NCBI GenBank assembly: GCA_012840345.1
Contig: DULO01000031.1
Location: 26,421-90,420 of the forward strand
Direction of reading: 5' to 3'
Origin: Candidatus Fermentithermobacillaceae bacterium
GTDB lineage: Bacteria > Bacillota > Sulfobacillia > Fermentithermobacillales > Fermentithermobacillaceae
Length of the DNA: 64,000 bases
The notes below the pieces were generated by a model. That model was not told the origin of the DNA. It worked only from the letters and a program-made list of their open reading frames with translations, and did not search any database. Below, piece by piece: positions 14,133 through 46,310 of the stretch; within the stretch, counting starts at the first letter, position 1; the number at the start of each line of letters is the position of its first letter. A program made the translations under genes and the position numbers.

Positions 14133-14133
14133 C

Positions 14134-14838
14134 TCAGCCCTCCCGTGCCATTCCTCCGTCGTATACGCGGGTGATGCGCCCGTCGAGCATCTCCACAACC
14201 CGGTGCGCCCACCTGGTGATCGAAGGATCATGTGAAACCACGACAAAGGTCTGGCCTCTTTCTACATTGAGTCTGTGGAAGATCTCGCCGATCTCCGACG
14301 AAGTCTTGGAGTCCAGATTCCCGGTTGGCTCGTCGGCCAGCACTATCGCGGGTTGGTTGGCCAAGGCCCTGGCGATAGCCACTCGCTGCTGCTCCCCTCC
14401 GGATAGCTCTAAAGGCTTGTGATCTTGCCTTTGGCCTAGGCCTACTTGAACCAAGAGCTCTCTCGCCCGTTCAGTCATGGCCTTCTTGCTCATTCCGCCA
14501 AACCTCATGGGCAACATCACGTTCTCGAGCGCTGTGAAGTGGGCTATGAGGTTAAAGAACTGGAACACGAACCCGACCTTGTTCCGCCTGATCCGGGCCA
14601 GACCGCTTTCGGAAAGCTGGGAGTATCTCTGGCCGTCCAGGATGACATCCCCGCTCTGGGGCCTGTCTAACCCTCCCAAGAGCCCAAGGAGCGTGCTCTT
14701 GCCGCTGCCCGAGGGGCCCATCAAAACGATGAATTCGCCGCGGTCCACTACCAGGTTCACGTCGTTGACCGCGTAGATTGTCTGTCCCAAGTGAAAGGAT
14801 TTCTTGAGGTTCACTGTCCTCAGGATAGGCTCATCCAA
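14134..14838 (-). CDS. ABC transporter ATP-binding protein (MacB/LolD-type), second copy
   Basis: 234 aa with GPSGSGKST, LSGGEQQRVAIARAL and IVLADEPTGNLD. It is a paralog of 6903..7610. Confidence 0.85.
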   Translation of the reverse strand: MDEPILRTVNLKKSFHLGQTIYAVNDVNLVVDRGEFIVLMGPSGSGKSTLLGLLGGLDRPQSGDVILDGQRYSQLSESGLARIRRNKVGFVFQFFNLIAHFTALENVMLPMRFGGMSKKAMTERARELLVQVGLGQRQDHKPLELSGGEQQRVAIARALANQPAIVLADEPTGNLDSKTSSEIGEIFHRLNVERGQTFVVVSHDPSITRWAHRVVEMLDGRITRVYDGGMAREG

Positions 14839-16204: not shown

Positions 16205-16250
16205 TTATTTACCTCCTCCGGTCTCCGGGTCGAATGTCGGTCCCTAGGGC

Positions 16251-17597
16251 TTACACTCCCAAAAAAGTGGCCGCCAGGAGCCAAATCGCTTCTCCCCGGG
16301 TGACGCCGGTATCGCCGGCTTCTCGGGAACGCTTTAGAACCAAGGCTTTTCTTCTCGCGCATTCCTCCTCGTTTATGCTGAGATTGGAGATCACGTCCAA
16401 GCAAGCCTCCATGATGTCTTTCCTATCTACTCTCTTCGACTCACCGGAAAACCTTCCCGCCCGGCCCTTGGCAGCCATCCGCTGAGAGATGACTTGGAAC
16501 AGGCCGCGGTCGGAAGCGTCTTCGAGTTTCGAGTTTCTTTGGGCGGCGTACGGGACTCCGGCCGGAACGGACATCAGGTTTAGCTCACGGACCGTAATCG
16601 GCTTCGAGGGGCGGACCCGGTTGTCCGCGTAGGTCACTATGTATCCGGCGCGCAAGAGGGCTTCCGCCGCGGGATACAGGGGATCGTCAGGGGGCAAGTC
16701 GGTGAACTGGGACATTTTAAGAAGCTCGGAGACGGTAACGACCTCGTAGCCGTAGGCCTTCAACACCGCCAGCTGCCGCTTAAGCCCAAAAGGCGCGGGC
16801 GCTTCCGAGGACATGTTGTAACCGTCTTTGTGAAAGATTATGGAACCGTTAAGGCAGTCCGGATCGTTGGATAGAGCTTCTTCCAACGGTCGGACCATGT
16901 TTTCCACGTCTCTTTGGAAGTCGCCTGTGGAAGCCTGCCACCCGCCTCCGTCAAAGCTGGCTCCCAAGTACATGTAGCCCAGAGCACGGTACGCGTCGTA
17001 GGCGTCGTAGCCTCCCAAGATCCGGTCGATATAGTGGGGCGGCCTGCCCAGCTCCATTTTCACGCCGCAAAGGGACAAGACGAAGTCATCCAGCGCCCTA
17101 AGGTCCTCTACCACCGCGTCGAAACTTGGGAGAAACCCGCGGAACGCGTAAGGGTACTTGTTGGGGCCAAAGGCGGCGTGGCTGAACCCGTGGTTGGAAA
17201 GCTGGTGGCCCTCGGCGACTATGCGTTTCACGAGGTCAGGCTGGTTTACGGCGCCTCCAAGGTGGTCTTGCCCAAACTCAGGATAGTGGTCGTACCTTAC
17301 CCCATTCCAGTACGGGCCGCCGTTCTTCCCTTTCGTGTCCGGATACTTGAACTTGGTGGAGCCGATAATGTCAAAAGTGCCCTTAGCGCCAGCTTCCTTA
17401 AGCGTCTCAAGGATGGATAAAGTGAGAGGTTCGGGCCCCGGCCGGGCGGGGCCCGCGCAAGGCCCGTCGTCAAAGGTTATGGCCACTACCCTCCGCCCGG
17501 GCACGGGAGCCACCCGGTCTATCCTTCTCACCGGGCCGATTTTCTGCGACAGGCGGTAGTTCTTCAGTTTTCTGTATATTTCTCTAGGCCCTTGCAT
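16251..17597 (-). CDS. Polysaccharide deacetylase (NodB/CE4 domain) protein with C-terminal SLH-like segment
   Basis: 448 aa. AITFDDGP...TFDIIG is a NodB motif. A C-terminal FTDLPPDDPLYPAAEALLRAGYIVTYADNRVRPSKPITVRE resembles an S-layer-homology motif. Confidence 0.65.
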   Translation of the reverse strand: MQGPREIYRKLKNYRLSQKIGPVRRIDRVAPVPGRRVVAITFDDGPCAGPARPGPEPLTLSILETLKEAGAKGTFDIIGSTKFKYPDTKGKNGGPYWNGVRYDHYPEFGQDHLGGAVNQPDLVKRIVAEGHQLSNHGFSHAAFGPNKYPYAFRGFLPSFDAVVEDLRALDDFVLSLCGVKMELGRPPHYIDRILGGYDAYDAYRALGYMYLGASFDGGGWQASTGDFQRDVENMVRPLEEALSNDPDCLNGSIIFHKDGYNMSSEAPAPFGLKRQLAVLKAYGYEVVTVSELLKMSQFTDLPPDDPLYPAAEALLRAGYIVTYADNRVRPSKPITVRELNLMSVPAGVPYAAQRNSKLEDASDRGLFQVISQRMAAKGRAGRFSGESKRVDRKDIMEACLDVISNLSINEEECARRKALVLKRSREAGDTGVTRGEAIWLLAATFLGV

Positions 17598-18786
17598 GTC
17601 TTCTGAAAACTCCTCCCGTCAAGTGGATAAGTCCCGGCATTGGGTCCGAGAGGCTAAAGAGGCCGTCTCTTGGACGGTACTTGAGGAGGTCCCAAAGCCC
17701 CTTAGCGATGTAGCCGGCTCCGTTTCCGGGTAGACGCGAGTATTCGAACAGAGAGACGAAGTCGCCGGGGAAAAACCGCACCCTTACGCCGTCTTTCTGC
17801 CGCAAGGGAGCAATATCCTCCCCAAGGCAAGCGCGGTAATACAGAAGAGGAAAATCCACGCCTGCTTCAACAGCCAAAGCCAGGCTGCCCCAAAACCGCG
17901 GGTTCACCTCGAGAAAGCGGAACTTGCCGTCGAGGCCCCTCCTAAAGTCCAGCATGGCCATACCTCGCCAGTTGAGAGCCGAAAGCAAACGGTGGCTGTA
18001 GTCCACCAGCTCGGGGCAGTCCTCTGACACGCAATACACTGTGGGGCCAGCTCCCCTGGGCCTTTCACGTATGCTCCGGTAGGTAAACGAGGCAACCGGC
18101 CTTCCGTCCTTGTCGTAGAGGAGCGCGGCGCCGTAATCCTCGCCTGCCACGTATTCTTGGGCGATTGGAGCGGTTTGAACCGTTTCCATCTGACGGTACG
18201 CTTCCAATACTTCTTCCGGCGATGAGCACATTCGGTAACGTAAAGACGCGGGCAGCCCCGCGTCCTCGCCTGACCTGTATTTCAACATGACGGGGTAAGG
18301 AAGGTCTTGCGCCCACTTGAGCATGGCGGAGGCATCCCGGATGTCTACCCCGTTTTCCGCGGGCGAACTTGTTCGTGGGACCGGCACGCCCAGGCTTCGC
18401 GCCAGCTTTGTGCACCTCGCCTTGTCGTGGGCTTCTTCCAGGGCTGACGGTGTGGGGACCAGCGTTTTGGCCCGCCTCGCGATCTTAGGCTCGTCCCAAG
18501 ACATTTTAAACACGGCCGGGGTAAAGACGGGCACGAGCACTCCCCCTTCTCCCGCCGCCTCCAGCAGGGTTTCGACATCGGCGTCGGAGAGAGCGGTTTT
18601 GGCGCCGCGGCCGAGATTGACACTAGACTTGACATACTTGGAATGGAAGGCAAGCGGCCTGGGGGTGTCAGCCGCCTCGGCGGCGACAACATGTATCCCA
18701 GCCCGGCCCAGGGACCGGGCGATAGTAACCGCTATGCGAAGCCTCGCGTCGGTCACCACTGCCTTGGGTTTCTCGTAAACCGCCAT
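17584..18786 (-). CDS. ATP-grasp domain carboxylate-amine ligase
   Basis: 400 aa with an ATP-grasp core (PVMLKYRSGEDAG...EYVAG...MLDFR...FLEVNPRF). It overlaps the deacetylase start by 14 nt, as in an operon. Confidence 0.65.
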   Translation of the reverse strand: MAVYEKPKAVVTDARLRIAVTIARSLGRAGIHVVAAEAADTPRPLAFHSKYVKSSVNLGRGAKTALSDADVETLLEAAGEGGVLVPVFTPAVFKMSWDEPKIARRAKTLVPTPSALEEAHDKARCTKLARSLGVPVPRTSSPAENGVDIRDASAMLKWAQDLPYPVMLKYRSGEDAGLPASLRYRMCSSPEEVLEAYRQMETVQTAPIAQEYVAGEDYGAALLYDKDGRPVASFTYRSIRERPRGAGPTVYCVSEDCPELVDYSHRLLSALNWRGMAMLDFRRGLDGKFRFLEVNPRFWGSLALAVEAGVDFPLLYYRACLGEDIAPLRQKDGVRVRFFPGDFVSLFEYSRLPGNGAGYIAKGLWDLLKYRPRDGLFSLSDPMPGLIHLTGGVFRRHARA

Positions 18787-18900: not shown

Positions 18901-20376
<1,476 letters not shown>

Positions 20377-29441: not shown

Positions 29442-30284
29442 GTGTTTACCTTGCCAAACGACACTGCCCTAGACATCCTGTGGAACACCATGGAACAAGA
29501 CCTTAACCGGCGGTGCTCTTCGGTGGGCGCCGGAGTCATGGGCTACTCTTTGTGCGATTTGACGACAGGAAAAACGGCCAAGTTCCAAGAACAGGTAGTC
29601 TTTCCGACAGCAAGCACCATAAAGATAGCCATCCTGTTGGCGGTGGCCACCAAAGTCCACGCCGGCCAGCTGGACTGGCAGAGCCGCTACAACACGGCCG
29701 GACTCCCCAAGGTAGGCGGCAGCGGGATCTTGTCGCTCCTTCGAGATCCGGTTGAGTTGTCCCTCTGGGATCTATCATCGTTGATGATAGCCCTATCCGA
29801 TAACGATGCCACAAACGCGTGTATTGACCTGGCTGGAATGGATTACGTCAACTCCCTTCTGTCCTCCTTGGGCCTGAAAAAGACCCTTTTGCGCCGGAAG
29901 ATGATGGACGGGGAAGCCGTCTTGAGAGGGGACGAAAACGTCTCGACTCCTGAGGAACTCATGAAGCTGGTCTCGATGATAGAGAAACGAGACGGAATCC
30001 CGGACGCCGTCTGCAAAGATGTCCTGACCATCTTGAGCCTAGAAAAAGACGGGGCCTTCACCCAAGGGCTGCCTCCCCACGTCAAGAGGGCCAACAAACC
30101 GGGAGGGCTGGACCACGTGGCGGTGGACGCGGGCTTAATCTACCTTAGGGACCGGACCGTGGCGTTGGGGGTCATGGCCTGTTTCGTGGAAGAGAAGCCT
30201 ACCGAGACCGTCGCGGATCTGATCCGAACAGCGTACCGCTACCTAAACCTCATATCCGAGTGCACCGAGTACGGAAGGGCTTAG
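29442..30284 (+). CDS. Class A beta-lactamase-like serine hydrolase (no obvious signal peptide)
   Basis: 280 aa with STIK (SxxK) and SDND (SDN) motifs. Confidence 0.6.
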   Translation: MFTLPNDTALDILWNTMEQDLNRRCSSVGAGVMGYSLCDLTTGKTAKFQEQVVFPTASTIKIAILLAVATKVHAGQLDWQSRYNTAGLPKVGGSGILSLLRDPVELSLWDLSSLMIALSDNDATNACIDLAGMDYVNSLLSSLGLKKTLLRRKMMDGEAVLRGDENVSTPEELMKLVSMIEKRDGIPDAVCKDVLTILSLEKDGAFTQGLPPHVKRANKPGGLDHVAVDAGLIYLRDRTVALGVMACFVEEKPTETVADLIRTAYRYLNLISECTEYGRA

Positions 30285-35227: not shown

Positions 35228-35851
35228 CTAGCGCTGCGAAGGTATGACCCTCGATATCTGAGGCAAAAGGTCGTAGAGCTCGATGAACTCGTCGGCGGCG
35301 TCGACAAGTTCGTCGGCAGCCTTGAAGTTGCACCGGGCGTAGGCGTCGGGATGCTGTGTGGATAACACCTGTATCCTGACGCCTCTCTGGGCGACGGCCT
35401 TTATGAGCGGGACAAAGTCCCCGTCCCCCGACACAAGCACGTACTTGTCGCACCGGTCGACCAGGGACAACATATCGATGGCAAGCTCGAGATCTAAGTC
35501 CGCCTTAATGGAACCTCCGGCGAACACCTTGAGGGGCTTTCTGACCACCATGTAACCGTTTCTGTTGAGGAACCGGTGGAACGACTGGGACCGTCTTCTC
35601 TGGGCGTCCAGCTCTTCTCTTACGGCCTGGGGATCAGGGGAATTTGTCAGCTTAACGTATTGCTCAATGCTGTCGGTAGTCCATTCGCCAGTGTAGTAGT
35701 AAGCTCTGATTAAAATGCTGTCTTTGCTAAGGATCTCAAGGAGTTTTACGAAGTCGACGTGGATTCCAAAGGAGTCATAGGTAGCGTACTTGAAGTTCCA
35801 ACCGTCGACAAAAAAAGCTAGGCGCGATGCGGGAGTAGTGACGTTTTTCAT
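35228..35851 (-). CDS. NYN-domain (LabA-like) protein
   Basis: The start at 35851 is preceded by a GGAGGA RBS. FFVDGWN...VLVSGDGDF are LabA/NYN motifs. A GAGCAC...GTGCTC hairpin plus T-tract ~130 nt downstream of the stop (35055..35090) is a plausible terminator. Confidence 0.75.
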   Translation of the reverse strand: MKNVTTPASRLAFFVDGWNFKYATYDSFGIHVDFVKLLEILSKDSILIRAYYYTGEWTTDSIEQYVKLTNSPDPQAVREELDAQRRRSQSFHRFLNRNGYMVVRKPLKVFAGGSIKADLDLELAIDMLSLVDRCDKYVLVSGDGDFVPLIKAVAQRGVRIQVLSTQHPDAYARCNFKAADELVDAADEFIELYDLLPQISRVIPSQR

Positions 35852-35908
35852 TTGAATCCTCCAGGATACGCACGCGGGGCCAAAGCTACCGTGCGTGGTG
35901 GCGGAAGT

Positions 35909-35985
35909 TGGTGCGCCCGGCGCGATTCGAACGCGCAACCTCTGGCTCCGGAGGCCAACACTCTATCCGATTGAGCTACGGGCGC
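35909..35985 (-). tRNA. tRNA-Arg (anticodon CCG)
   Basis: The reverse complement folds as a cloverleaf: acceptor GCGCCCG/CGGGCGC, D-arm, anticodon stem TTGGC/GCCAG with loop CTCCGGA (anticodon CCG), T-arm GCGCG-TTCGAAT-CGCGC, discriminator A and encoded CCA. Confidence 0.85.
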
Positions 35986-36010: not shown

Positions 36011-36346
36011 CTAAATGCGACCTAACAATATCAGGGCGCCTATTACCAGGAACCCGCCTCCTGCGACCGTCTTGATGATACTCTGGGGAACGACCCTGTA
36101 AAGGGTGTCTCCTACCAGTACGCCGATTAGCGAAGACAGGACCAACGCGACCGCGGAACCCAGGAACACGCTCAGAGGAGCCTTCTTGGACGAAGCCAGC
36201 ATCATGGTGGACAACTGGGTCTTGTCTCCCAGTTCGGCGAAAAACACCGCTATGAACGTAGAAAACACTACTTGCCAGTTCAATATGTACGAGCCTCCGG
36301 CTCGTCCCTCCTCCCTGGTTGCCGTAGTTAGAGAGAACGCCGCCAA
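36011..36346 (-). CDS. UPF0016 / GDT1(TMEM165)-like small membrane protein
   Basis: 111 aa with the ELGDKTQL signature motif of UPF0016 cation-transporter halves. Confidence 0.6.
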   Translation of the reverse strand: MAAFSLTTATREEGRAGGSYILNWQVVFSTFIAVFFAELGDKTQLSTMMLASSKKAPLSVFLGSAVALVLSSLIGVLVGDTLYRVVPQSIIKTVAGGGFLVIGALILLGRI

Positions 36347-36399
36347 AATACTATATTAACCCGCAAGAACTGTCCAGAAACGGTTTGAGCGGGAAGGTC

Positions 36400-37734
36400 C
36401 TACGACAGCCCCAATGACTTCGCTTTCTCGTCAATAGCGTCTTGAAGCGTAGGCCGGCCGATCTCCTGAAGTTCGTAGCGGACCCTGGTCCAGGGTTTGT
36501 CTATTTTGGCTATCCTGCTCAAGTCTATGGGCGTGGCCACTACTACCCCATCGCAAGGCGTCTTCCGGATCGTCTCTTCCAGGTCCCTCACTTGCCCCTC
36601 TCCGTATCCCATAGCAGGCAGCAAAGTGCCGATCCTGGGATAAGTCCGGTATGTTTCCAAGATGCTCTTTACGGCGTACTCCCTGGGATCCACCAGTGAT
36701 TCCGCTCTGTAACGTTTGGCGGCGACCACACCCGCGCCAAAGGTCATCTCCCCGTGGGTAAGCGTTGGCCCGTCCTCAATGACCAGCACTTTCTTTCCTC
36801 TGATAACCTCGGGGTTATCCACGAAAATGGGCGAAGCGGCTTCTACCACGATGGCGTCGGGATTAAGGGAATCGATGCTTTCCCTGACTCTCTCCACCCC
36901 GTCGGGCGACGCGGTGTCGACCTTGTTTATTACGATGATGTCAGCCATGCGCAGGTTAGTCTCGCCCGGATGGTAACGCTCCTCGTGTCCCGGGCGGTGA
37001 GGATCGACCAGTACGATGTGAATGTCGGGACGGTAGAACGGTATGTCGTTGTTGCCGCCGTCCCACAAGATGATATCGGACTCAGCTTCCACTCCCCGGA
37101 GTATCCGCTCGTAGTCGACTCCCGCCCATACGACCAGCCCCCGGTCAACTATGGGTTCGTACTCCTCTCGTTCCTCGATGGTGCACTTGTGGATGTCCAT
37201 GTCTTCATAGGTGGCGAATCTCTCCGCGGCTTGAGCCAGAAGGTCCCCGTAAGGCATAGGATGGCGGACGACCCCCACCTTACGGTTCTTGGAGACCAGG
37301 ATATCGGCGACCCTCCGGGTGGTCTGGCTTTTGCCAACACCGGTTCTCACGGCGGTCACCGCGATGACCGGCTTAGTCGACTTCAGCATGGTAGTCTTCG
37401 GGCCCATGATGCGGAAGTCGGCGCCGGCTGCCGCGCACATTGAAGCCTTGTGCATCACGTACTCGTGGGGTACGTCGCTGTACGCGAAGACTACCTCGTC
37501 AACATCATGGGAAGCGATTAGCCGGGGGAGGTCCGCTTCCGGGTAAATGGGAATGCCGTCCTCGTAACCGGGACCCGCCAGTTCCGGAGGGTACCTGCGC
37601 CCCGCTATGTCCGGGATTTGGGCCGCCGTGAAAAACAACACCCTGTAGTCAGGGTTCCCGCGGAAATACACGTTGAAGTTGTGGAAGTCCCTGCCTGCCG
37701 CCCCCATGATCGCGACCTTTTTGGGGTTCCCCAC
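36400..37734 (-). CDS. Cyclic 2,3-diphosphoglycerate synthetase-like (BioD/CobQ-like deviant-Walker-A ATPase) protein, paralog 1
   Basis: 444 aa. GTG start 7 nt after GGAGGA. Deviant P-loop AVTAVRTGVGKSQTT and ILWDGGNND motifs. ~70% identical to the 39917..41239 product. Confidence 0.6.
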   Translation of the reverse strand: MGNPKKVAIMGAAGRDFHNFNVYFRGNPDYRVLFFTAAQIPDIAGRRYPPELAGPGYEDGIPIYPEADLPRLIASHDVDEVVFAYSDVPHEYVMHKASMCAAAGADFRIMGPKTTMLKSTKPVIAVTAVRTGVGKSQTTRRVADILVSKNRKVGVVRHPMPYGDLLAQAAERFATYEDMDIHKCTIEEREEYEPIVDRGLVVWAGVDYERILRGVEAESDIILWDGGNNDIPFYRPDIHIVLVDPHRPGHEERYHPGETNLRMADIIVINKVDTASPDGVERVRESIDSLNPDAIVVEAASPIFVDNPEVIRGKKVLVIEDGPTLTHGEMTFGAGVVAAKRYRAESLVDPREYAVKSILETYRTYPRIGTLLPAMGYGEGQVRDLEETIRKTPCDGVVVATPIDLSRIAKIDKPWTRVRYELQEIGRPTLQDAIDEKAKSLGLS

Positions 37735-37759
37735 TTTTCATTCCTCCTTGAAATCGGCT

Positions 37760-39748
37760 CTAACTGACCGCCCTCGTCTCTTCTGTCCTCGGGGTCTTGA
37801 CCCAGGCCTTGGGTTCTTTCCCCATAGACTTCAACACCAGCGCGCTGGTATATGGCACAGGGAACATGAACGCCGCCAAAGGCAAAAGGAACAATCCCAT
37901 GTAGACACAGAACCTGCCCAACCAGGAGTTGGGACAGCAGCTGTTGTCAAGATGAGCGCTGTACCTGCGAAACGCGTAGAAAGTGAACCCGAGATAGATG
38001 GCGGAAAACCCGCTCAGCATCCACTGTCCCGCCGCCGGCACAAGAGTGGCGTCCATAAGGTCCTGGTGGTGCAACACCATGGCTATTGGCGGCACAAAGG
38101 TGGCCAGTTGGTACAGGACCCACTCCAGCTGGCCCTTGATAATGAGACTCAGGCGCAGCCGTCGTTGGGCTGATCTCTCCACATCCTTATAGGTTAGGAC
38201 CTTGTCGACCACCTGAAGATGTCCGGTGCCCCACCTAAGCCTCTGGCGAAAGAAGGCTTTAAAAGTCGGAGGTGTCTGCTCTGATGACGAATAAGGAAGG
38301 TATTCGGGCCAGGCTCCTCTCAAGAGATAAGCTCTCGTCCCGAACTCAAGGTCTTCTGTGAGTACGTGACAGTCCCACCCTCCTACCTCTCTTAAGAGGT
38401 CGTGAGCTATGAAGACGTTGGTCCCGCCGACAAAAGGCAAGGTGCGGAACAGCCAAGGAAGGTACCAATCGTGGGCGACGGCCTGATACAGGGCGGCAAT
38501 GCGGCAGAAGGGCGTCATCTGGTAGAAGTTCCTTACCTGGAACACGGGGCCTTGCAAGACTCTTGACTTCTCGGGGTCCATCATTCTCCTGTAGCCCACA
38601 TATAGAAGGACATCCTTATGAGGCCTGCTCTCCGCGTCGTAGAACCCGACGACTTCGGTCCTGGGGTCCAGGTAGTTGATTCCCCAGTTCAAAGCCCTAC
38701 CCTTGGTGGACGGTACCGGTCTTCCCGTCTTTTTTCCGTTGAGAGCGCCGTCAAAGTCGTAGGGCACGACCACGTGCCTCACGGCCGGAACGCCTGGTTT
38801 TTGGGCGGCTTCCGAGGCGACTCTGTCCACCACTTCTTGGGTGGTAGGGTATAGATCCAAGAGAGCGTGGCGTATCTTATCCCGTATTTCGCCCGTCCTA
38901 GACGCCTTGCGGACGGCTTGGCACACCCGTTTGGCTATCAAGTCGGTCATCCGCCGGATGATGTCTTGAGTCAGGTCATGGTTCGCCTTGATTGTGTGCT
39001 GAATGGTCCTCCTTAAGATCTTCCGGCTCGATTCGTCGCAGATCTCGGAGTACGCCGCTATGACCGGCACGGCTACCGCCAAGCAAGCGGGATACAGCCT
39101 CTCGATGTCCAGTTCGGAAAGCCACGGACAAGTCTTTTTCAGTATGCCCTTGAGCCTCCCCGCCTGAGGGGCCCCGTGAGAAGCGAGTATGGCGATGCTG
39201 ATGCCTCTCACCACGGCGTGGCGTTCGAGCCCGGGAAGCAGATAGAGCTCGGACGCTCCCGACGGGTAGTCTTTTTGAAAGCCTTTGGACAGGTATTCCC
39301 TCAACGCGTACTCGGAGAGGCAGGATACTATAACGGCCCGGAGTTCCACCTCGTGTCTTGACCGGACTCCTTCCCTTTCCCCCGACAAGATCTCCACGGC
39401 CAAAGCCTCCAAGGCTTTACGGTCTTCTTGAGCCGCCAGGATCTCTTTTTCGTCGGTCACCACCATGACTTCGTAACGGCCTTGCGGGTACCGCAAGGAA
39501 AGCAAATGGTTGATTGTGTTTTCAATGACCAGGGATTCGTTTCGGGCCGGGACCATGATGCTGATAAAAGGAACGGGCCTACCCAGTGAAGCCGCCGTCT
39601 CTTCTATGAAGGCGGGCTTTAGAGTCGGCTTCCTATTCCAGTACTTTCGTTCGCTGTAGTGCTTCCAGACCAGAAACCTGGCAAATAACAAAAAGAACAC
39701 AAGATAAACCGCGTACGCGACGAGGTACAGAGTCTGGGCGGGCGTCAT
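37760..39748 (-). CDS. Processive family-2 glycosyltransferase (membrane, QxxRW type) with large insertion
   Basis: N-terminal TM, SIMVPARNES GT-A motif, DAE(D) motifs, QRLRWGTG and C-terminal TM helices. The start is placed at ATG MTPAQTLY (39748), because the listed TTG at 39844 lies inside the upstream terminator's U-tract. Confidence 0.75.
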   Translation of the reverse strand: MTPAQTLYLVAYAVYLVFFLLFARFLVWKHYSERKYWNRKPTLKPAFIEETAASLGRPVPFISIMVPARNESLVIENTINHLLSLRYPQGRYEVMVVTDEKEILAAQEDRKALEALAVEILSGEREGVRSRHEVELRAVIVSCLSEYALREYLSKGFQKDYPSGASELYLLPGLERHAVVRGISIAILASHGAPQAGRLKGILKKTCPWLSELDIERLYPACLAVAVPVIAAYSEICDESSRKILRRTIQHTIKANHDLTQDIIRRMTDLIAKRVCQAVRKASRTGEIRDKIRHALLDLYPTTQEVVDRVASEAAQKPGVPAVRHVVVPYDFDGALNGKKTGRPVPSTKGRALNWGINYLDPRTEVVGFYDAESRPHKDVLLYVGYRRMMDPEKSRVLQGPVFQVRNFYQMTPFCRIAALYQAVAHDWYLPWLFRTLPFVGGTNVFIAHDLLREVGGWDCHVLTEDLEFGTRAYLLRGAWPEYLPYSSSEQTPPTFKAFFRQRLRWGTGHLQVVDKVLTYKDVERSAQRRLRLSLIIKGQLEWVLYQLATFVPPIAMVLHHQDLMDATLVPAAGQWMLSGFSAIYLGFTFYAFRRYSAHLDNSCCPNSWLGRFCVYMGLFLLPLAAFMFPVPYTSALVLKSMGKEPKAWVKTPRTEETRAVS

Positions 39749-39839
39749 GATGTCGGCTTCCACTCCCTTGTCGGTTAACGCTTTCTGTGCCCAACCAGTA
39801 TTGTTGCGCTTGCCGGATGGGGCTATGCGCCAGCGTAAC

Positions 39840-39873
39840 CTCAAAAGGAAAGCGGTCCCTGTTCGGGACCGCT
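39840..39873 (-). terminator. Rho-independent terminator downstream of cpgS-like paralog 2
   Basis: Minus strand: GCGGTCCC-gaaca-GGGACCGC, a perfect 8-bp stem, followed by TTTCCTTTTGAGG. Confidence 0.6.
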
Positions 39874-39916
39874 CCCAAAAGCCCTCTCAATATCCTTTCT
39901 GGAAGCCTACCGCCTC

Positions 39917-41239
39917 TTAGAGGACGCCTCCCACCGCTTCTATGGCTTCTTTGAGCGTAGGAGTCCCCACCTCTTGAAGTTCATACCGCACGCGCATTGA
40001 CGGCTTGTCGATCTTCATGATCCGCCGCAAGTCTATTGGGGTTGCCACAAGCACTAGGTCACACGGGGTGCGCGCCACCGTCTCTTCCAGTTCCGACACC
40101 TGTTTGGGTGAGTACCCCATTGCCGGAAGCACGGGTCCCAGGTGGCTGTACTTCTCGAAAGTGCGGGCAATGCTGCCTACGCTGTACGGCCGCGGGTCAA
40201 CCAGTTCCAGCGCTCCCCACTTCCGCGCTGCCATAACGCCGGCCCCGTAAGCCATCTCGCCGTGGGTGAGAGTCGGGCCGTCTTCTATGACCAGCACCCG
40301 CTTGCCTGTGATTTCCTGTCCCCTCTCAGGGAACACGGGGGAAGCGGCTTCGACTATTATGGCCTTGGGATTAAGTTTCCTGACGTTGTCCCTGACCGCG
40401 TCCACATTGGCCTTGTCCGCCGTGTCTATCTTGTTGATCACCACTATGTCGGCCATGCGAAGGTTGGTCTCACCGGGATGGTACGAAACCTCGTGCCCGG
40501 GCCTGTGCGGGTCAACCAACACTATGTGACAGTCTGACTTATAGAACGGGATGTCGTTGTTGCCGCCATCCCAGAGGATCACCTGGGATTCTTCCTCCGC
40601 ACGCTTTAGTATTTCGCCGTAGTCAACCCCGGCGTACACAATAATCCCGCGGTCGATGTGGGGTTCGTATTCTTCCCGCTCTTCGATGGTGCACTCGTGA
40701 AGATCCAGGTCCGCGTAGGTTTCGAACCGCTGGCAAGCCTGCTTAGCCAAGTCTCCGTAGGGCATTGGGTGGCGAATAGCGGCCACTTTTTTCCCTGAAG
40801 CGCGCAGGAGCTCCGCGACTTTCCTGGTGGTCTGGCTCTTACCCACGCCCGTTCGCACGGCGCAGACCGAAATCACCGGGTTCCTCGATTTTATGGCGGT
40901 CGCGTTGTACCCGATGAGTTTGAAATCGGCTCCCGCGGAAAGAACTATGGACGCTTTGTGCATAACGTCCACGTGGCTTATGTCGCTGTAGGAAAAGACA
41001 ACTTCATCGACCTTGTGCTTTACTATGAGGTCCGGCAGTTCTTCCTCCGGGTAAATGGGGATGCCGTCTGGGTACCGCTCTCCCGCCAATTCGGGAGGAT
41101 AGCGCCTTCCCTCAATGTTAGGTATTTGCGTGGCGGTGAAGCAGACGACTTCGCTTTGGGGATCGTTCCTGTAAACCGTGTTGAAGTTGTGGAAATCCCT
41201 GCCCGCTGCCCCCATAATGATGACCTTCTTGGCACACAT
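39917..41239 (-). CDS. Cyclic 2,3-diphosphoglycerate synthetase-like protein, paralog 2
   Basis: The start is ATG MCAKKVIIMGAAG at 41239 with a GGAGGAGGAG RBS, colinear with paralog 1. Same P-loop and DGGNND motifs. Confidence 0.6.
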   Translation of the reverse strand: MCAKKVIIMGAAGRDFHNFNTVYRNDPQSEVVCFTATQIPNIEGRRYPPELAGERYPDGIPIYPEEELPDLIVKHKVDEVVFSYSDISHVDVMHKASIVLSAGADFKLIGYNATAIKSRNPVISVCAVRTGVGKSQTTRKVAELLRASGKKVAAIRHPMPYGDLAKQACQRFETYADLDLHECTIEEREEYEPHIDRGIIVYAGVDYGEILKRAEEESQVILWDGGNNDIPFYKSDCHIVLVDPHRPGHEVSYHPGETNLRMADIVVINKIDTADKANVDAVRDNVRKLNPKAIIVEAASPVFPERGQEITGKRVLVIEDGPTLTHGEMAYGAGVMAARKWGALELVDPRPYSVGSIARTFEKYSHLGPVLPAMGYSPKQVSELEETVARTPCDLVLVATPIDLRRIMKIDKPSMRVRYELQEVGTPTLKEAIEAVGGVL

Positions 41240-41277
41240 GAGAAACGCTCCTCCTCCGGTTATACTGGTCTTTTCTC

Positions 41278-42309
41278 CTATCGCGCCCAAACCTCTCCCA
41301 CTATTTCAAGAGGTCTCCGGCACTTGGGACACGCCTTACCGTCCAGGTAAGATGCTTCCAGCTCCATTCCTCCCCGTTCCAGCAAGAGTTCTCCGCATTT
41401 CGGGCACCTCGTGTCCGCGTAACCTGTTTTCCAAGCGTTGCCTATGTAAACATAGTGAAGGTTTCTAAGAGCCACTTCCCTAAGCCTCTCCAAAGTCTCC
41501 GTGGGCGTCACCTGCTCTCGCGACTTGTAGGCGGGAAAGTATCTAGATAGGTGCAAGGGTATGGCGGGGCTCAGGGAACCAAGCCAGCCGGACAGGCCCT
41601 CCATGTCTTCGTCTCTATCGTTCTGGCCGGGTATGACCAGACACGTTACCTCCACCCAAGCACCGTACCTGACGGCGCGTTCCACGGTCTTCTTCACGGG
41701 CTCTAAGCGGCCTCCCGCCAGATCGCGGTAGAAATCCTCATCCCAAGCCTTCACGTCTATGTTGAAGGCGCCTACAAGCGGCAGGACCTCTTCCAGAGCC
41801 TTTGGGGAAATGAACCCGTTGGTTACCATGACGTTCAGAAGCCCCTGTTCGTTTGCCAAACGGGCGGAATCAAGAACAAACTCCAGCCCAACCGTGGGTT
41901 CGTTGTAGGTGTAGGCTATCCCCACCACCCGCCGGTCCGCCTGCCTCCTTTGGGACGCGCAAAGCACGATTTCCTCAGGCTCAAACACCTCACAGTAAGG
42001 CCGGGCCTGGGATATCTGCCAGTTTTGACAAAACTCGCACCGGAAGTTGCACCCGAAAGACCCTACCGATAGCAGCATCCCCCCGGGATGGACGTGAAAG
42101 AGGGGTTTTTTCTCTACCGGGTCTAAGGCCAGCGACGTAACCGCCCCGTAATTCCGGCTTACCAGCTTCCCGTCCAGGTTTTGCCTGACCCTGCAAATGC
42201 CGTACTTGCCGGGCGGGATTACGCAGCCGTGGGGGCAAAGCTCGCAGGCCACCTTGCCTCCCTCTTGGCTCCGGTAAAACCTGGCCTCAGTCGACGGCAA
42301 GCTATCCAT
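41278..42309 (-). CDS. AmmeMemoRadiSam-system-type radical SAM enzyme (PFL-activase-like)
   Basis: 343 aa with CNFRCEFC (CxxxCxxC) radical-SAM cluster motif, an N-terminal CELCPHGC and a C-terminal CPKCG...CPKC zinc-ribbon. Confidence 0.8.
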   Translation of the reverse strand: MDSLPSTEARFYRSQEGGKVACELCPHGCVIPPGKYGICRVRQNLDGKLVSRNYGAVTSLALDPVEKKPLFHVHPGGMLLSVGSFGCNFRCEFCQNWQISQARPYCEVFEPEEIVLCASQRRQADRRVVGIAYTYNEPTVGLEFVLDSARLANEQGLLNVMVTNGFISPKALEEVLPLVGAFNIDVKAWDEDFYRDLAGGRLEPVKKTVERAVRYGAWVEVTCLVIPGQNDRDEDMEGLSGWLGSLSPAIPLHLSRYFPAYKSREQVTPTETLERLREVALRNLHYVYIGNAWKTGYADTRCPKCGELLLERGGMELEASYLDGKACPKCRRPLEIVGEVWAR

Positions 42310-42322
42310 GGCGCAACGCCTC

Positions 42323-43735
42323 TCAATGGTATCTGGTTACTTTGAAACGATACAGCCTTACGTCCTTCTCCCTCTCACCTATGCCGGCCTTGCGCTTGGC
42401 GATGGAGACTTGTTCCTCCACCGTGTTGACGCCTGGCAAGTCGGGCAGCAGCAGGCCTCTGCGCCGTCCCTTTTCACAGATAACCCCATATACCTTAGGG
42501 TCAAGGTCCGAGAGAGACTCGACGGGCTCGGAAGGCGAAAGAACGTCCACAGAGTAGTCCAGGTAGTCCAACTCGGAAGAGTCTACCGGTTCGAACCTCG
42601 GGTCCCTCGCGGCCGCGCTGACGGCGTTGGATATGATCTCCGCCGCCAAGCTGGACGTGGTGGCCTCCGTGGTCCCAATGCACCCTCGAAGGTCTCCCTC
42701 TTTATGGATGGATACGAAGACCCCGCCCCGCTCCAGGAACTCAGCGGGCACATCCTTGGGAACTCCTATGATCCTGCCCGTCTTTACGTACTCCTCCACC
42801 GCCTTTCTCGCCAGGGAGACGGGATAGGACTCGCCGCTCCGGATGGAGTTCATACGTTCCTGGCGCTTGCGGTTGATCTCATCCAAACGGGGGGCCTTGA
42901 GTTCTCCCTTTGGAGTAAACAGGGCCACCGAGTACCCTACCCCGAAAGGTCCTTCGTAAGACAGGACCTGGGACGAAACCTCCACGCGGTCCAAGATGCC
43001 CAGCATGAGGGCGATGGGCCTGAGCCCGCATTCGCCCGCCTCTTCTATCAGGTCTTTGGGCAGCGTCAGTATCTTGGAAGGCTCGAAGTCTCTTAGCAGG
43101 TTTATCAGTTCCCGGTCGAAGACCTCGCCCTTGGGGCTGTACCCCGCGGGAGCATCACGAGTAAGCCTGTGGGACAGATCGCCTGAGCACAACACGGCCA
43201 CCCGGCGTCCCAAGCTCCGGCATGCCCGCTCCACGGCTATGCCCGCTCTGTAAAGGTCCAGAAGGGAAAGGAACCCGATGTTGAGCACTACCATACGCCC
43301 GGCAAAGCCCTTTCGCGCAAGGAAACTCACGGGCACGACGACCCCGTGGTCGAGACGGTCGCCTATCATGTACCGGGAGCGTGTATTCCTGTCCAACAGG
43401 ACGGCCGGGGTGCTAGGGTCTTTGGAGAGCTCCCGAACTAACGCGGAAGCCAGGTCGGAGTCGTTTAGGTAGCGTACGCGGACTTCGGGGGCTCCGAACC
43501 CCGACAGGTCCCCGATAAGCTCCGCTTCATCCCTCACCGACAGGGCATCTCTGAATACCGGGCCGTGGGGGGTGATGACCAACAGGGTTTCAGGTCCGGC
43601 GTCTATGAAGGCGGAAGCGAGCCGGTCCATTGCCCGTCGCGTAGCCAGAACCTTTCTCTCTTCGCCGCGCCCCACCTCGGGGAGCAATATCGCCGGATGC
43701 GGGGCCAGTCCGCACAAGACCACGCTTGTCGTCAC
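42323..43735 (-). CDS. Fusion protein: class-III extradiol-dioxygenase-like (Memo/LigB superfamily) domain + AMMECR1 domain (AmmeMemoRadiSam proteins B+A)
   Basis: A GTG start 2 nt after the racemase stop, with an AAGGTGG RBS. N-terminal CGLAPHPAILLPE...ITPHGPVF...SGDLSHRL (LigB/Memo-like). C-terminal RGCIGT...DPRF (AMMECR1). Confidence 0.7.
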   Translation of the reverse strand: MTTSVVLCGLAPHPAILLPEVGRGEERKVLATRRAMDRLASAFIDAGPETLLVITPHGPVFRDALSVRDEAELIGDLSGFGAPEVRVRYLNDSDLASALVRELSKDPSTPAVLLDRNTRSRYMIGDRLDHGVVVPVSFLARKGFAGRMVVLNIGFLSLLDLYRAGIAVERACRSLGRRVAVLCSGDLSHRLTRDAPAGYSPKGEVFDRELINLLRDFEPSKILTLPKDLIEEAGECGLRPIALMLGILDRVEVSSQVLSYEGPFGVGYSVALFTPKGELKAPRLDEINRKRQERMNSIRSGESYPVSLARKAVEEYVKTGRIIGVPKDVPAEFLERGGVFVSIHKEGDLRGCIGTTEATTSSLAAEIISNAVSAAARDPRFEPVDSSELDYLDYSVDVLSPSEPVESLSDLDPKVYGVICEKGRRRGLLLPDLPGVNTVEEQVSIAKRKAGIGEREKDVRLYRFKVTRYH

Positions 43736-43736
43736 G

Positions 43737-44801
43737 TCAGCGCACCACCTTTTCCACAAATGGAGACGTCGCCGCCTGCAAAAGGGAACTGTAAGCGGGG
43801 ATGAACCGCAGCATTGAGCCAACCTTCACATCCCCCGCGTCCTGAACGTCCAAAATGAGATGGTCTGAAGACGCTCCTAATACCTGCACTCCCGGTTCCA
43901 GAGGGGTCAGCCCGTCAGGATCTATGTCCTGCCGTCCCGCGGCACAGATGGCTCTCTTGCGGATTCCCCGGTCTGGAAAAGTAACCACGAGACCGAAAGC
44001 GTTTTGCCCGACCTGTCCTTCCGGTTTTGAGGGCTTGGTTTGGACTTCTATGACTTCCGCGACTATGGTAAAGGCGTCTGGGTAACACCCGGGGACAGGA
44101 GACCTATGGACCGCTTCCGTCCCCAAAAGCACGCTTTCGCCTATGCGGAGTTCGGTTATCCCCGCGGGCATCTCCTTGTTCATCACCAGGGGCATGTTGG
44201 CCGAATTGCCGCCTGACACGGTTTCCAGCTTTAGTCCTAGGCTCGACTCGATATCGTCCCTTACTTTGAGCAATGCCTCCATCTTCTCCCGGGTCGGGAT
44301 TACCCCGCCGTAGCAAGCCAGGTTCACCCCGATACCCGCCAGCTTCACGCCGTCTTCTGAGCTCATGGCTTTGGCGGTTTCCACTGCCTTGTGGACGGGA
44401 ACTCCCTCCCGGAGGTCTCCCAGGTCCACCATGAGTACCACCTTGTGGGTCCTGTTTGCCTTCCTCGCCGCCTTGGCCAGCATCCTGACGACTTCCACTT
44501 CAGAGTTTAGGCTCACGTCGGCGACCGCTACCGCTTCGTCCACTCGGCTGGGCGCCGGGGACCTCAGGAGCACCGTTTCCCCCGCGTATCCGCCCTCTCT
44601 TGCCCTGGCGAGGTTCTCAACCCGGGAATCAGCTATAGCGGCGGCACCGCCCTCAACCATGGCCTTCACAACCGCGGGGTGACCCAGTACGGACTTGGGA
44701 ACGCCGACCAGCCTCATGCCCAACTCGCCCAGCATAGACGACACCACGCGGGTGTTGTGCCTGATTTTGGCCGTGTCGATAACCAATGCAGGTAGCTTCA
44801 T
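43737..44801 (-). CDS. PLP-dependent alanine-racemase-fold protein (ornithine racemase / YhfX-like)
   Basis: 354 aa, N-terminal TIM-barrel PLP domain (VLGHPAVVKAMVEGGAAAIADSRVENL...VVLMVDLGDLREG) and a C-terminal beta domain. Confidence 0.7.
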   Translation of the reverse strand: MKLPALVIDTAKIRHNTRVVSSMLGELGMRLVGVPKSVLGHPAVVKAMVEGGAAAIADSRVENLARAREGGYAGETVLLRSPAPSRVDEAVAVADVSLNSEVEVVRMLAKAARKANRTHKVVLMVDLGDLREGVPVHKAVETAKAMSSEDGVKLAGIGVNLACYGGVIPTREKMEALLKVRDDIESSLGLKLETVSGGNSANMPLVMNKEMPAGITELRIGESVLLGTEAVHRSPVPGCYPDAFTIVAEVIEVQTKPSKPEGQVGQNAFGLVVTFPDRGIRKRAICAAGRQDIDPDGLTPLEPGVQVLGASSDHLILDVQDAGDVKVGSMLRFIPAYSSLLQAATSPFVEKVVR

Positions 44802-46144
44802 TAGACCAACCCCAGACTTGTCTTTAGAATTGTCATGGCCTCACTCGGCTTTTCTCTGGAAAGCACGCCGCATGCCGCCATGATGTAGTCCTTGTCTATA
44901 AGGATGCGGGCGTCTTTCGGGTAAAGCTCCCTTCCGGCGCCCTGCCCGATCAGTCTCTTCAGTATCTCTTCCCCGCCTGGAAGCCTGGTTAGGGCCCCGC
45001 CTGTTCCGATGATCGTTCCTACGCTAGATAGGTCTTTCCCGCTTGCGACGGCCTGTCTGCCCGACGGCCCGTAAAGATACCGGATTCTGCCGGCGTGCCG
45101 CGAAAACGCGATCTCGCAGGCGGCCTTGGTAAGATACGACACCAAGCGGGATTCACGATCCGAGGGTATCACGCTGAGTTTGTCCAAAAGAGGCTCGGGA
45201 TCAAAGCCAAGCTCAAGAACTGCTCTATCCTTCACTTCTTCATAGACGTTCTTGGCGTTGATGAACACTCCCAAGTCCCCTTCAACGGTCCGTTTGGCCA
45301 AGGGCTCAGGGTTCTCCAGGATGGCCTGGATTTCGGGGCTCCCTTTTGCCACCGAGTGAACGTCGGTCGTGGCGCCGCCCACGTCGAGAGCGCACAAGTC
45401 TCCCAAATCCTCCCACAAGACCTTACACGCTTCCATAACGGCGCCGGGCGTCGGCATTATGGGCCCGTCCACCATTTCCCTGATAGTATCCATCCCCGGG
45501 GCTTTGGTAATGTGCTCCTCAAACGCCGCCTGTATCACCTTTCTGGCGGGCTCCACCACCAGTTCGTCAACTCGCGGAAATACGTTTTCAACAAAGTACA
45601 CCTTGCCCCCGTGGTCCTTGAGGATGTCCGCCACTTCCTGCCTGGCGGCTATATTGCCGGCGTAGATGATTGGGACATCGGGCAGAACTTCGTGAAGCAC
45701 CCTCGCGTTATGCAAGGCGGTAGATTTCTCGCCGTAATCCACCCCTCCGGCCAAGAGCGCTATCTTGGGCTTCACCTTCTGAAGACGCAGAGCGTCGGAC
45801 GAGGTCATCTCGCCGGCGGTTATGAATCTAATCACCGCTCCCGCTCCCAACGCCGCTTCCTTGGCGGCCCTGACGGTCATGTCGTATACCAGGCCGTGGA
45901 CGCTCATGGAAAGCCCTCCGGCCGCGCTGGAAACCGCCATCATGCGGTCGTAGTCCAGCGAACCGGCGCCAAGGGACTCCTTTAGCCGGTCCAAAGCCTT
46001 GCGCAGCCCTAGAGTGACGTCTCCTTGGGCGACAGTGGTCTCCGACACCCCCTGCCCAAGAAACCGCGGGTCTTTCGAAAGGTCAAAAGCGTTCACTACT
46101 GTGGTTGTGCTGCCGATCTCGGCGACCAATGCATGGACTTTCAT
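44801..46144 (-). CDS. Glutamate mutase L (GlmL/MutL)-family ASKHA protein, paralog C
   Basis: 447 aa with N-terminal ALVAEIGSTTTVVNAF and ALDVGGATTDVHSV, the length and motifs of the GlmL family. The preceding RBS is AAGGAGAGG. Confidence 0.75.
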   Translation of the reverse strand: MKVHALVAEIGSTTTVVNAFDLSKDPRFLGQGVSETTVAQGDVTLGLRKALDRLKESLGAGSLDYDRMMAVSSAAGGLSMSVHGLVYDMTVRAAKEAALGAGAVIRFITAGEMTSSDALRLQKVKPKIALLAGGVDYGEKSTALHNARVLHEVLPDVPIIYAGNIAARQEVADILKDHGGKVYFVENVFPRVDELVVEPARKVIQAAFEEHITKAPGMDTIREMVDGPIMPTPGAVMEACKVLWEDLGDLCALDVGGATTDVHSVAKGSPEIQAILENPEPLAKRTVEGDLGVFINAKNVYEEVKDRAVLELGFDPEPLLDKLSVIPSDRESRLVSYLTKAACEIAFSRHAGRIRYLYGPSGRQAVASGKDLSSVGTIIGTGGALTRLPGGEEILKRLIGQGAGRELYPKDARILIDKDYIMAACGVLSREKPSEAMTILKTSLGLV

Positions 46145-46310
46145 TATCGCGACTCCCGCCTCTCCTTAAGCCGCTATTAGCATCAAAACCTCCACCCTCA
46201 TGCATTCTTGCATGAGAGGTGAATTCCTGCCAAAATAAGGGCTCTTAAGGCGTCGCGGGGTTTTCGCGGGTTCGTGGGGTAACCGGACGTTGGGTTAACA
46301 TGGCTCTATA

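Follow-up and report, generated by a model that had tools for sequence, protein, structure and literature searches.

Do eight neighbouring genes of an uncultured bacterium encode one pathway? This question is raised by a 10-kb run of genes at positions 36011-46144 (minus strand) of a 64-kb stretch of DNA, hereafter the window, from a Candidatus Fermentithermobacillaceae bacterium, whose class comprises thermophilic, spore-forming amino-acid fermenters (PMC10215811). In transcription order, the run encodes Or-4 (an ASKHA protein), Orr (a racemase dependent on pyridoxal phosphate, PLP), a LigB/Memo-type domain fused to AMMECR1, a radical SAM enzyme, the P-loop protein cpgA, the membrane glycosyltransferase GT2, the second P-loop protein cpgB and the small transporter subunit GDT1. 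An earlier note, made from the sequence alone, had read the run as one translationally coupled operon for a pathway not yet described. The signals and comparisons presented here speak against this. We consider it likely that the run represents two neighbouring transcription units, assembled from four modules that can be separated, and not one pathway; the transcript boundaries, the roles of the cpg proteins and the glycan product are what we infer in this reading. Unit 1 (Or-4, Orr, LigB/Memo-AMMECR1, radical SAM and cpgA) would be what is left of the distal part of a supercluster for ornithine/citrulline fermentation. Unit 2 (GT2, cpgB and GDT1) would begin past an intrinsic terminator, at a conserved promoter-like element of its own.

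Gene order and transcription signals

Listing and translation of the open reading frames (ORFs) confirmed eight consecutive minus-strand genes. Start codons were re-set by homologue comparison before junction lengths were taken. Spacers of 0-40 nt or overlapping codons had been claimed throughout, and this is correct for five of the seven junctions: Or-4 and Orr overlap by 1 nt (TAATG), and the spacers measure 1 nt (Orr/LigB-AMMECR1), 13 nt (LigB-AMMECR1/radical SAM), 38 nt (radical SAM/cpgA) and 25 nt (GT2/cpgB). The remaining two are wider, with 168 nt between cpgA and GT2 and 53-119 nt between cpgB and GDT1, depending on the start of the latter. Furthermore, genes throughout the window tend to be co-directional and tightly packed, and these eight are nothing special in that respect. 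The minus strand holds 55 of the 64 greedy ORFs, and same-strand spacers across the window have a median of 25 nt (60% are <=40 nt).

The cpgA/GT2 spacer carries two predicted signals. Folding identified an intrinsic-terminator-like element (39842..39874, minus strand), composed of a 10-bp GC-rich hairpin at 39874-39850 followed by UCCUUUUG (centroid -20.5 kcal/mol; z -2.6). An equivalent hairpin with a T-tail is located 20-60 nt past the stop codon of the upstream cpg gene in 20 of 27 relatives, where the sequences themselves are unrelated. Alignment of relatives also delimits a conserved promoter-like block 5' of GT2, GCATAG-N17-AACAATA (39788..39829, minus strand). Its family consensus, CGAATAG...GCGCAACACTA...TGGGC, is common to almost all relatives. 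A loose motif was derived from one lineage of relatives (group A), with a second, deeply diverged lineage (group B) serving as an independent check. It precedes GT2 in 26 of 31 group A loci, in 6 of 10 group B loci and in 2 of 40 other GT2 loci, as compared with 0.18% of random windows; the block is absent 5' of stand-alone GT2 genes. With a predicted hairpin, a U-tract and a promoter-like block in a spacer of 168 nt, a single transcription unit is not supported by the sequence.

The consensus for the forespore sigma factors G and F is GAATA-N17/18-CATACTA. We take the block 5' of GT2 to resemble such a promoter, as a lead only. This reading would fit the proximity of cwlD and the occurrence, at the same place in locus L094, of a gene from DUF421, to which the Bacillus spore-membrane protein YetF belongs. 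A sigma-54 reading of the TGGGCA block failed on visual inspection, since its GG and GC are not correctly spaced.

Other signals are found at the borders of the run. A sigma-70-like promoter candidate with an upstream TG, TTGGCA-18-AAGAAT (46204..46233, minus strand), sits in the 166-nt spacer between cwlD and Or-4; it comes from a consensus scan only, with 9/12 matches. A second sigma-70-like site was found by consensus scan 5' of GDT1. Downstream, the run terminates at a tRNA-Arg(CCG) gene overlooked in the earlier note (35909..35985, minus strand; ARAGORN, and 66 bits with Rfam RF00005) which lies 25 nt past GDT1 and is preceded by a sigma-70-like site rated good, TTGTTA-17-TATAAT (36028-36000). 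Rfam searches of the spacers for riboswitches and leaders, at gathering thresholds and at E<=1, gave only tRNA; neither a yybP-ykoY Mn riboswitch before GDT1 nor a c-di-GMP element before GT2 was detected.

Full-length relatives of GT2 are present in 203 species genomes, almost all of them from uncultured Bacillota. Candidatus Fermentithermobacillaceae provides the nearest ones, and GT2 identity does not exceed 85% for any species genome of the collection. For comparison, a genome sample of 80 GT2 loci with 10-kb flanks was assembled, onto which the window proteins were mapped by tblastn; proteins of the relatives were added to the query set as they were encountered. A second sample of 80 diverse cpg loci from metagenomes (L098-L177) was scanned with a consensus-led alignment in order to avoid bias toward the lineage of the window.

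The co-occurrence search that the earlier note had proposed recovered known ornithine and AmmeMemoRadiSam modules, but all eight families together in only 3 of the 80 species loci, and those three also have oraSE, for D-ornithine 4,5-aminomutase, and OTC, for ornithine carbamoyltransferase. Gene content differs freely between the relatives in the genome sample. OTC, either cpg copy, Or-4 and Orr have each been gained or lost: the cpg copy 3' of GT2 is present in only six Fermentithermobacillaceae-type loci, one locus (L011) has no cpg gene at all, and Or-4 or Orr is absent from some others. GT2 itself stands without any other window gene nearby in 42 of the 80 loci, and no partner family recurs in more than 10 of these 42. 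Two contigs of the sample bear unexpected labels. JBLNBR010000018.1 (L036/L085), labelled Ignavibacteriales, carries the same cluster together with a Firmicutes-type truA-rplM-rpsI-cwlD synteny; CAYQIY010000019.1 (L063), labelled Pseudomonadota, has the Orr/AmmeMemoRadiSam/carbamate kinase/GT2/cpg portion of the cluster and a GT2 that falls in with group B. Both are probably mis-binned or mislabelled.

Could the eight genes still form one operon, whose products make a modified or cyclic-phosphorylated glycan or a small molecule via radical chemistry? The co-directional arrangement and the five tight junctions would agree with such a pathway, as would the several components without known function and a gene order kept across about 30 Fermentithermobacillaceae-type species. 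However, the packing is that of the whole window, a predicted terminator and promoter separate cpgA from GT2, and the three species with the full set contain oraSE and OTC in addition. GT2 stands alone in 42 loci, and the supercluster occurs without GT2 in L094 and L112. Lastly, Or-4 and Orr belong to a known ornithine pathway, and in 19 of the 80 diverse loci the partners of cpg are carbamate kinase and OTC, not glycosyltransferases. We find a single pathway scarcely credible. The candidate pathway dissolves into known modules, and the run is not an eight-gene biosynthetic cluster to pursue.

The ornithine, AmmeMemoRadiSam and cpg genes

Most family assignments of the earlier note hold, with the exception of the Memo model and of the cyclic 2,3-diphosphoglycerate (cDPG) synthetase identity, which are discussed below. 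Or-4 (44801..46144, minus strand) is a GlmL-related ASKHA protein and a putative chaperone or reactivase of D-ornithine aminomutase, as judged from its families and context. It matches PF13941 with 521 bits and NF040744 with 632.1 bits, above the cutoff of 600, over residues 4-444 of 447. Orr (43737..44801, minus strand) has the expected PLP racemase fold (PF01168, Ala_racemase_N) and is a probable ornithine racemase. Its score with NF040742 (395.6 bits) is under the cutoff of 480, yet the alignment is full length, and its placement after oraSE-Or4 in relatives supports the assignment despite the low score.

The genes ord, ortAB, oraSE, or-4 and orr constitute the known oxidative ornithine pathway (PMC8803604). 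Judged by sequence, Or-4 and Orr are the tail of this operon. In most Fermentithermobacillaceae-type loci, including L084, oraS-oraE lies immediately 5' of Or-4, with ortA/ortB and ord farther upstream; a locus from the window's own subclade (L005) retains oraE at this place. The window and L011 read cwlD-Or4-Orr, while L013 and L026 read cwlD-Orr, and these differing endpoints imply that the upstream part of the operon is missing in several sublineages. By tblastn, none of oraSE, ord, ortAB and OTC is found in the whole 64-kb window. The reactivase without a mutase, to which attention had been drawn, is accurate for these 64 kb but no longer an oddity, since oraS-oraE, ortAB and ord precede Or-4 in relatives; the mutase is lacking because the upstream ord-ortAB-oraSE part is missing from the locus. 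The orphan reactivase is explained in this way, and a repeated, independent trimming of the ornithine operon within one bacterial class is documented.

Two more PF13941 genes (GlmL/'MutL'-type ASKHA) are located in the window, which brings the total to three paralogues: one at 3954-5750 (minus strand, 598 aa, 389 bits) and one at 12402-14246 (minus strand, 614 aa, 130 bits). No mutase is encoded near either of them. The neighbours of the former are a gene for an RnfC_N-like 470-aa protein (2525-3937) and, at 5768-9069, FtsX/ABC transporter genes.

The third gene of the run (42323..43735, minus strand) has a probable GTG start 1 nt past the Orr stop codon and fuses the B and A components of AmmeMemoRadiSam. 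The B component matches PF02900 (LigB, 123.5 bits). The A component, AMMECR1, matches PF01871 (158 bits) and TIGR04335 (143.2 bits, cutoff 99), and its motifs RGChG (RGCIG) and DxR[aromatic] (DPRF) are seen in the protein sequence. The claim of a fused Memo and AMMECR1 protein is accordingly sound for the fusion and for AMMECR1; the Memo model TIGR04336 reaches 19 bits, under its cutoff of 26, and LigB takes its place. The LigB and Memo families are related, and the Koleobacter orthologue has a weak Memo match. The adjacent gene (41278..42309, minus strand) encodes the AmmeMemoRadiSam radical SAM enzyme, as predicted, with 292.6 bits for TIGR04337 (cutoff 220), a PF04055 match and the CxxxCxxC motif CNFRCEFC.

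This pair is an already described module. The neighbourhood of AMMECR1, radical SAM and ring-opening-dioxygenase-fold (LigB-type) genes, including fusions, was reported in 2007 with a proposed role in base modification (PMC2034487). The same work does not support the view of the module as typically archaeal; the pair is not restricted to archaea. Under the name AmmeMemoRadiSam, the literature yielded incidental mentions only. Koleobacter encodes LigB/AMMECR1-rSAM-cpg (rSAM, radical SAM) without ornithine genes, and group B loci read cwlD-LigB/AMMECR1-rSAM-OTC-cpg. The pair thereby accompanies cpg in several Bacillota lineages (Koleobacter, group B and L112), but adjoins it in only 1 of the 80 diverse metagenome loci. 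Near AmmeMemoRadiSam-cpg, two unrelated lineages share an unusual, ArgE/DapE-like M20 peptidase of ~550 aa (L009 6590-8245 and L020 5338-6981, both minus strand; L087/L088/L091). It is encoded between radical SAM and cpg in some Fermentithermobacillaceae, and in Koleobacter 5' of the genes for SpoIIM, the CCA enzyme and LigB/AMMECR1.

The cpg proteins belong to no curated family, and profile searches gave weak cobW/MeaB/HypB P-loop matches. The copy 5' of GT2, cpgA (39917..41239, minus strand), belongs to a lineage-specific clade; the copy 3' of GT2, cpgB (36400..37734, minus strand), is of the generic bacterial type. They are 65% identical and fall into separate clades of a rough neighbour-joining (NJ) tree; a recent tandem duplication was rejected on these grounds. 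The family is very large and ~70% identical across phyla, a value also found for cpgB and its Chloroflexota and Koleobacter homologues. Its invariant motifs are GxGKS and NKxD (N270-K271-x-D273), which together denote GTP binding in P-loop GTPases; the NKxD motif points to GTP rather than ATP.

The earlier note had called both proteins ATPases like the cDPG synthetase (cDPGS). The fold is indeed that of cDPGS, and the synthetase identity is not supported. The sole PDB sequence match of cpg is cDPGS, with a partial alignment of 33-35 bits, and a profile of 14 family members reaches 35.5 bits over residues 212-321 only. For the AlphaFold2 (AF2) model of cpgB (pLDDT 89), Foldseek ranks the cDPGS entries 8oru/8ork as the top PDB folds (E 6e-16, 506 aligned columns, 15% identity), followed by LpxK and then by HypB and MeaB. 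LpxK, UreG and HypB have been reported as the closest structural relatives of cDPGS itself (PMC10690619). From sequence and model, we regard the cpg proteins as sharing the cDPGS fold without being cDPG synthetases, and the NCBI name 'cyclic 2,3-diphosphoglycerate synthase' on some homologues is unlikely to be right.

Gene neighbours offer a different suggestion. OTC lies between radical SAM and cpgA in seven close relatives, and in L044 and L063 its place is taken by carbamate kinase; both are bona fide enzymes (OTC, TIGR00658 438 bits; carbamate kinase, TIGR00746 418 bits). Across the diverse metagenome loci, carbamate kinase and/or OTC directly adjoins cpg in 19 of 80, commonly with cpg followed by carbamate kinase and often then by OTC (e.g. 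L151, L156, L162, L172). Other neighbours in this sample are asp23-nusB upstream of cpg (9/80) and the order cwlD-LigB/AMMECR1-rSAM-cpg-GDT1 (1/80); GT2 adjoins cpg in none of the 80. The main recurrent partners of cpg are hence enzymes of carbamoyl phosphate and citrulline-ornithine conversion, which suggests that its own role lies around these reactions. We found no literature on the function of this 'predicted GTPase' family (COG2403). A large conserved family, annotated as 'GTPase' or misleadingly as cDPG synthase, thus adjoins carbamate kinase or OTC in roughly a quarter of the sampled loci. The linkage is a new element and provides a concrete, testable biochemical hypothesis.

Taken together, the full supercluster of relatives among thermophilic spore-forming Bacillota would read ord-ortA-ortB-oraS-oraE-or4-orr, memo/ammecr1-rSAM, (arcC)-(OTC)-cpg. 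From family and context, Orr would racemise L- to D-ornithine, and Or-4 would be the ASKHA chaperone of the B12-dependent D-ornithine aminomutase. The AmmeMemoRadiSam pair travels with the ornithine block in several Bacillota lineages, and cpgA would be a GTP-binding protein of the cDPGS fold that acts around carbamoyl phosphate and the conversion between citrulline and ornithine. The present locus lacks the catalytic core (ord, ortAB, oraSE) and OTC.

A closer functional association has also been considered. AmmeMemoRadiSam, the cpg GTPases and GDT1 might constitute an accessory system of ornithine/citrulline fermentation which matures or repairs the aminomutase, OTC or carbamate kinase, or supplies them with a metal or cofactor; the synteny would then reflect function and GT2 would be only a passenger. 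Group A, group B together with L112, and L094 represent three lineages of deep divergence that share the order Orr/LigB-AMMECR1/rSAM/(arcC)/(OTC)/cpg/(cpg)/GDT1 and in all of which the junctions from Orr to LigB-AMMECR1 measure 1-32 nt. Past cDPGS and LpxK, the cpg fold is nearest to the G3E metallochaperones HypB, MeaB and UreG, and L094 has an ATP:cob(I)alamin adenosyltransferase gene 4 kb downstream. However, AmmeMemoRadiSam adjoins cpg in just one of the diverse loci, accompanies cpg in Koleobacter where the ornithine genes are lacking, and is widespread in organisms without the ornithine pathway (PMC2034487). Even with mutase and OTC gone from the locus, the window retains the pair and two cpg genes, and ~70% identity across phyla is a pattern more typically seen in enzymes whose small substrate is fixed than in chaperones dedicated to a particular client. 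We therefore judge this accessory role to be unlikely and retain separable modules as the preferred reading. The persistent embedding of AmmeMemoRadiSam in the ornithine cluster of a few Bacillota lineages is a modest new element. For a module with homologues in human disease (AMMECR1, MEMO1), a stable seat in a fermentation cluster is a weak new lead.

GT2, cpgB and GDT1

GT2 (37760..39748, minus strand) is a membrane synthase of the processive type. Its ATG start at 39748 is backed by homologue lengths of 660-665 aa. The call is upheld by PF13632/PF13641 and by residues invariant in 17 homologues: D99, D371-A-E373, T464-E465-D466 and Q502-R-L-R-W506. Further invariant motifs are PARNE, DEKE, STKGRALN and FYDAESRP. 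In the AF2 model (pLDDT 86.6), an all-helical insert of ~215 aa is located within the GT-A domain. Foldseek relates the model to hyaluronan synthase (7sp9, E 2.8e-7), BcsA, chitin synthases and PcManGT, with probability 1.0 for 7sp9, 5ej1, 4p00 and 8k3w; TM-scores are only 0.3-0.5 because of the helical insert.

Some Fermentithermobacillaceae genomes encode a further GT2 paralogue at a distance (L040 with L016, in the same metagenome-assembled genome, MAG; L083 with L010), and these distant copies lack all partner genes. Tandem copies 200-500 nt apart are present in L042 and L069. A divergent Ala_racemase_N gene next to GT2 was examined as a conserved GT2 partner in loci of the Dethiobacter type (L048, L051, L086) and rejected: it has no tblastn match in the window at E<=1e-3 and is consequently not a close relative of the window's Orr.

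GDT1 (36011..36280, minus strand) is a half-size, single-repeat cation transporter subunit of the UPF0016 family, as called, with PF01169 at 82.5 bits (cutoff 27) and the motif AELGDKTQ. Its start was set at a TTG with a ribosome-binding site; the longest ORF would begin at 36346, and homologues have ~90 aa. The locus contains one repeat in one gene, without a second repeat or a second GDT1 copy. With a single repeat of ~89 aa, the protein would have to act as a homodimer.

Does unit 2 exist outside this cluster? In L096/L097, GT2-cpg-GDT1 stands alone beside type IV pilus genes, with a GT2 ~50% identical to those of all other groups, and the trio recurs in group B. Its presence in unrelated contexts indicates that it behaves as a unit of its own. 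Conversely, L094/L095 encode oraS-oraE-Or4-Orr-LigB/AMMECR1-rSAM-arcC-OTC-cpg-cpg-DUF421-GDT1 without GT2, in proteins 46-67% identical to those of the window, and L112 likewise has the supercluster without GT2. The most economical interpretation makes GT2 a later insertion between two cpg paralogues of a pre-existing cluster. The trio would move between genomic contexts as a mobile unit, in which a membrane-embedded processive GT2 would polymerise and export a glycan, with genes beside it for a second GTPase of the cpg type and for a half-size subunit of a Mn2+/Ca2+ transporter. In group B loci (L085, 7824-9824), the upstream cpg and GT2 are separated by inserted genes for an ArsP permease, accompanied by a helix-turn-helix regulator, and for a toxin-antitoxin pair of the nucleotidyltransferase/HEPN type; this junction evidently tolerates insertions.

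An explanation that denies meaning to every adjacency, the trio included, is passive inheritance of synteny 3' of the ribosomal-protein/cwlD region. Members of group A, group B and L112 do occupy the same chromosomal position (truA-rplM-rpsI-cwlD), and downstream genes of unrelated function (NYN, FMN_bind, M19 dipeptidase) show synteny to the same degree within the family. However, the trio recurs by type IV pilus genes with a GT2 of only ~50% identity, cpg-arcC-OTC adjacency extends to 19 of the 80 diverse loci, Or4-Orr and oraSE belong together in an operon already known, and junctions of 1-38 nt have been kept over large divergence. Passive synteny is therefore very unlikely to explain the whole.

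At the other extreme, GT2, cpg and GDT1 could constitute an undescribed three-component glycan-synthase system of spore-forming Bacillota, perhaps expressed under forespore sigma-G/F, in which the GTPase and the Mn2+/Ca2+ transporter subunit serve the synthase. We consider this rather unlikely. If it were true, cpgB and GDT1 might modify or energise the polymer or supply metal to GT2. As a corollary, the cpg family (COG2403-type) would be a missing, broadly conserved player in carbamoyl-phosphate metabolism. The trio and its conserved promoter-like element represent a new, defined and testable unit of uncultured thermophilic spore formers.

Several observations weigh against two units of separable modules. 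Terminator and promoter are predicted, and read-through could still yield one long mRNA. The order Orr/AmmeMemoRadiSam/(arcC, OTC)/cpg/GDT1 has been kept in deeply diverged lineages with proteins of only 46-53% identity; this persistence exceeds usual passive synteny, so some functional coupling between modules is possible. Both Or-4 and Orr are intact, with conservation on a par with that of their neighbours (71-81% versus 60-91% identity), and probably remain in use; the mutase gene may lie at another place in the genome, and a locus that we describe as reduced could be split and not lost. Finally, the comparison genomes are all MAGs, and both the GT2 and the cpg trees are rough NJ trees.

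Other genes of the window complete the picture. A minus-strand run at 14999-18786, which may be a cell-wall modification set, comprises genes for an M20 peptidase, an SLH-domain polysaccharide deacetylase and a PF15632 protein of the ATP-grasp type. The segment 21805-29303, likewise on the minus strand, contains cheR and cheA along with genes for a putative glycosyl hydrolase of the DUF4015 family and for a GH18 protein that bears Cu_amine_oxidN1 and SH3 domains. Clear plus-strand genes are limited to those of IMP dehydrogenase (18922-20376) and of a beta-lactamase-family protein (29442-30284). Past the tRNA, the longest ORF of an NYN-domain gene (35228-35938, minus strand) wrongly begins within the tRNA gene.

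Comparison with known systems

The first reference is the oxidative (Stickland) L-ornithine cluster of the Clostridium sticklandii / C. difficile type, which comprises orr, oraS, oraE, or-4, ord, ortA and ortB. The window shares with it an Or-4 above the NCBIfam equivalog cutoff and a full-length Orr-like racemase. It differs by the lack of ord, ortAB and oraSE, by an Orr under the curated cutoff and by the extension with AmmeMemoRadiSam, (arcC/OTC), cpg and GDT1 genes; to our knowledge, none of these additions is a described part of the ornithine cluster.

Compared with AmmeMemoRadiSam (TIGR04335/04336/04337; Balaji and Aravind 2007), the radical SAM and AMMECR1 proteins of the window pass their cutoffs and are encoded by adjacent genes. 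As in the system described in 2007, AMMECR1 is fused to a dioxygenase-fold domain and has the motifs RGChG and DxR[aromatic]. In contrast, the B component matches Pfam LigB (124 bits) rather than the Memo model (19 versus 26), and the pair is embedded here in an amino-acid fermentation cluster.

The cpg proteins resemble cDPGS (PDB 8ORK/8ORU/9SXB) in their length, in a two-domain layout with an N-terminal and a P-loop kinase-like domain, and in the Walker A motif GxxGxGK[ST]. Unlike cDPGS, to which they are 15% identical with a partial sequence match, they carry the NKxD guanine-specificity motif where cDPGS has none. In the ATP-dependent cDPGS of M. fervidus, 2,3-DPG is bound by K145, R146 and E45'. 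Moreover, the cpg family is bacterial, widespread and linked to carbamate kinase and OTC, whereas cDPG is reported only from hyperthermophilic methanogens.

GDT1 has the PF01169 match and the E-x-G-D-K-T motif of the UPF0016 / GDT1 / TMEM165 / MneA Mn2+(Ca2+) transporters. Unlike the two-repeat members, such as the 209-aa form in L037, it consists of one ~89-aa repeat encoded by a single gene.

Lastly, GT2 shares with the processive synthases (hyaluronan synthase, BcsA, chitin synthase, PgaC/NodC type) the D, DAE, TED and Q(R)xRW motifs, transmembrane helices at both the N- and the C-terminus, and the fold, with match probabilities of 1.0. In contrast to the known enzymes, its GT-A domain is split by the ~215-residue all-helical insert. 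Furthermore, the place of PilZ, BcsB or PgaABD partners is taken by a cDPGS-fold GTPase and a half-size UPF0016 protein.

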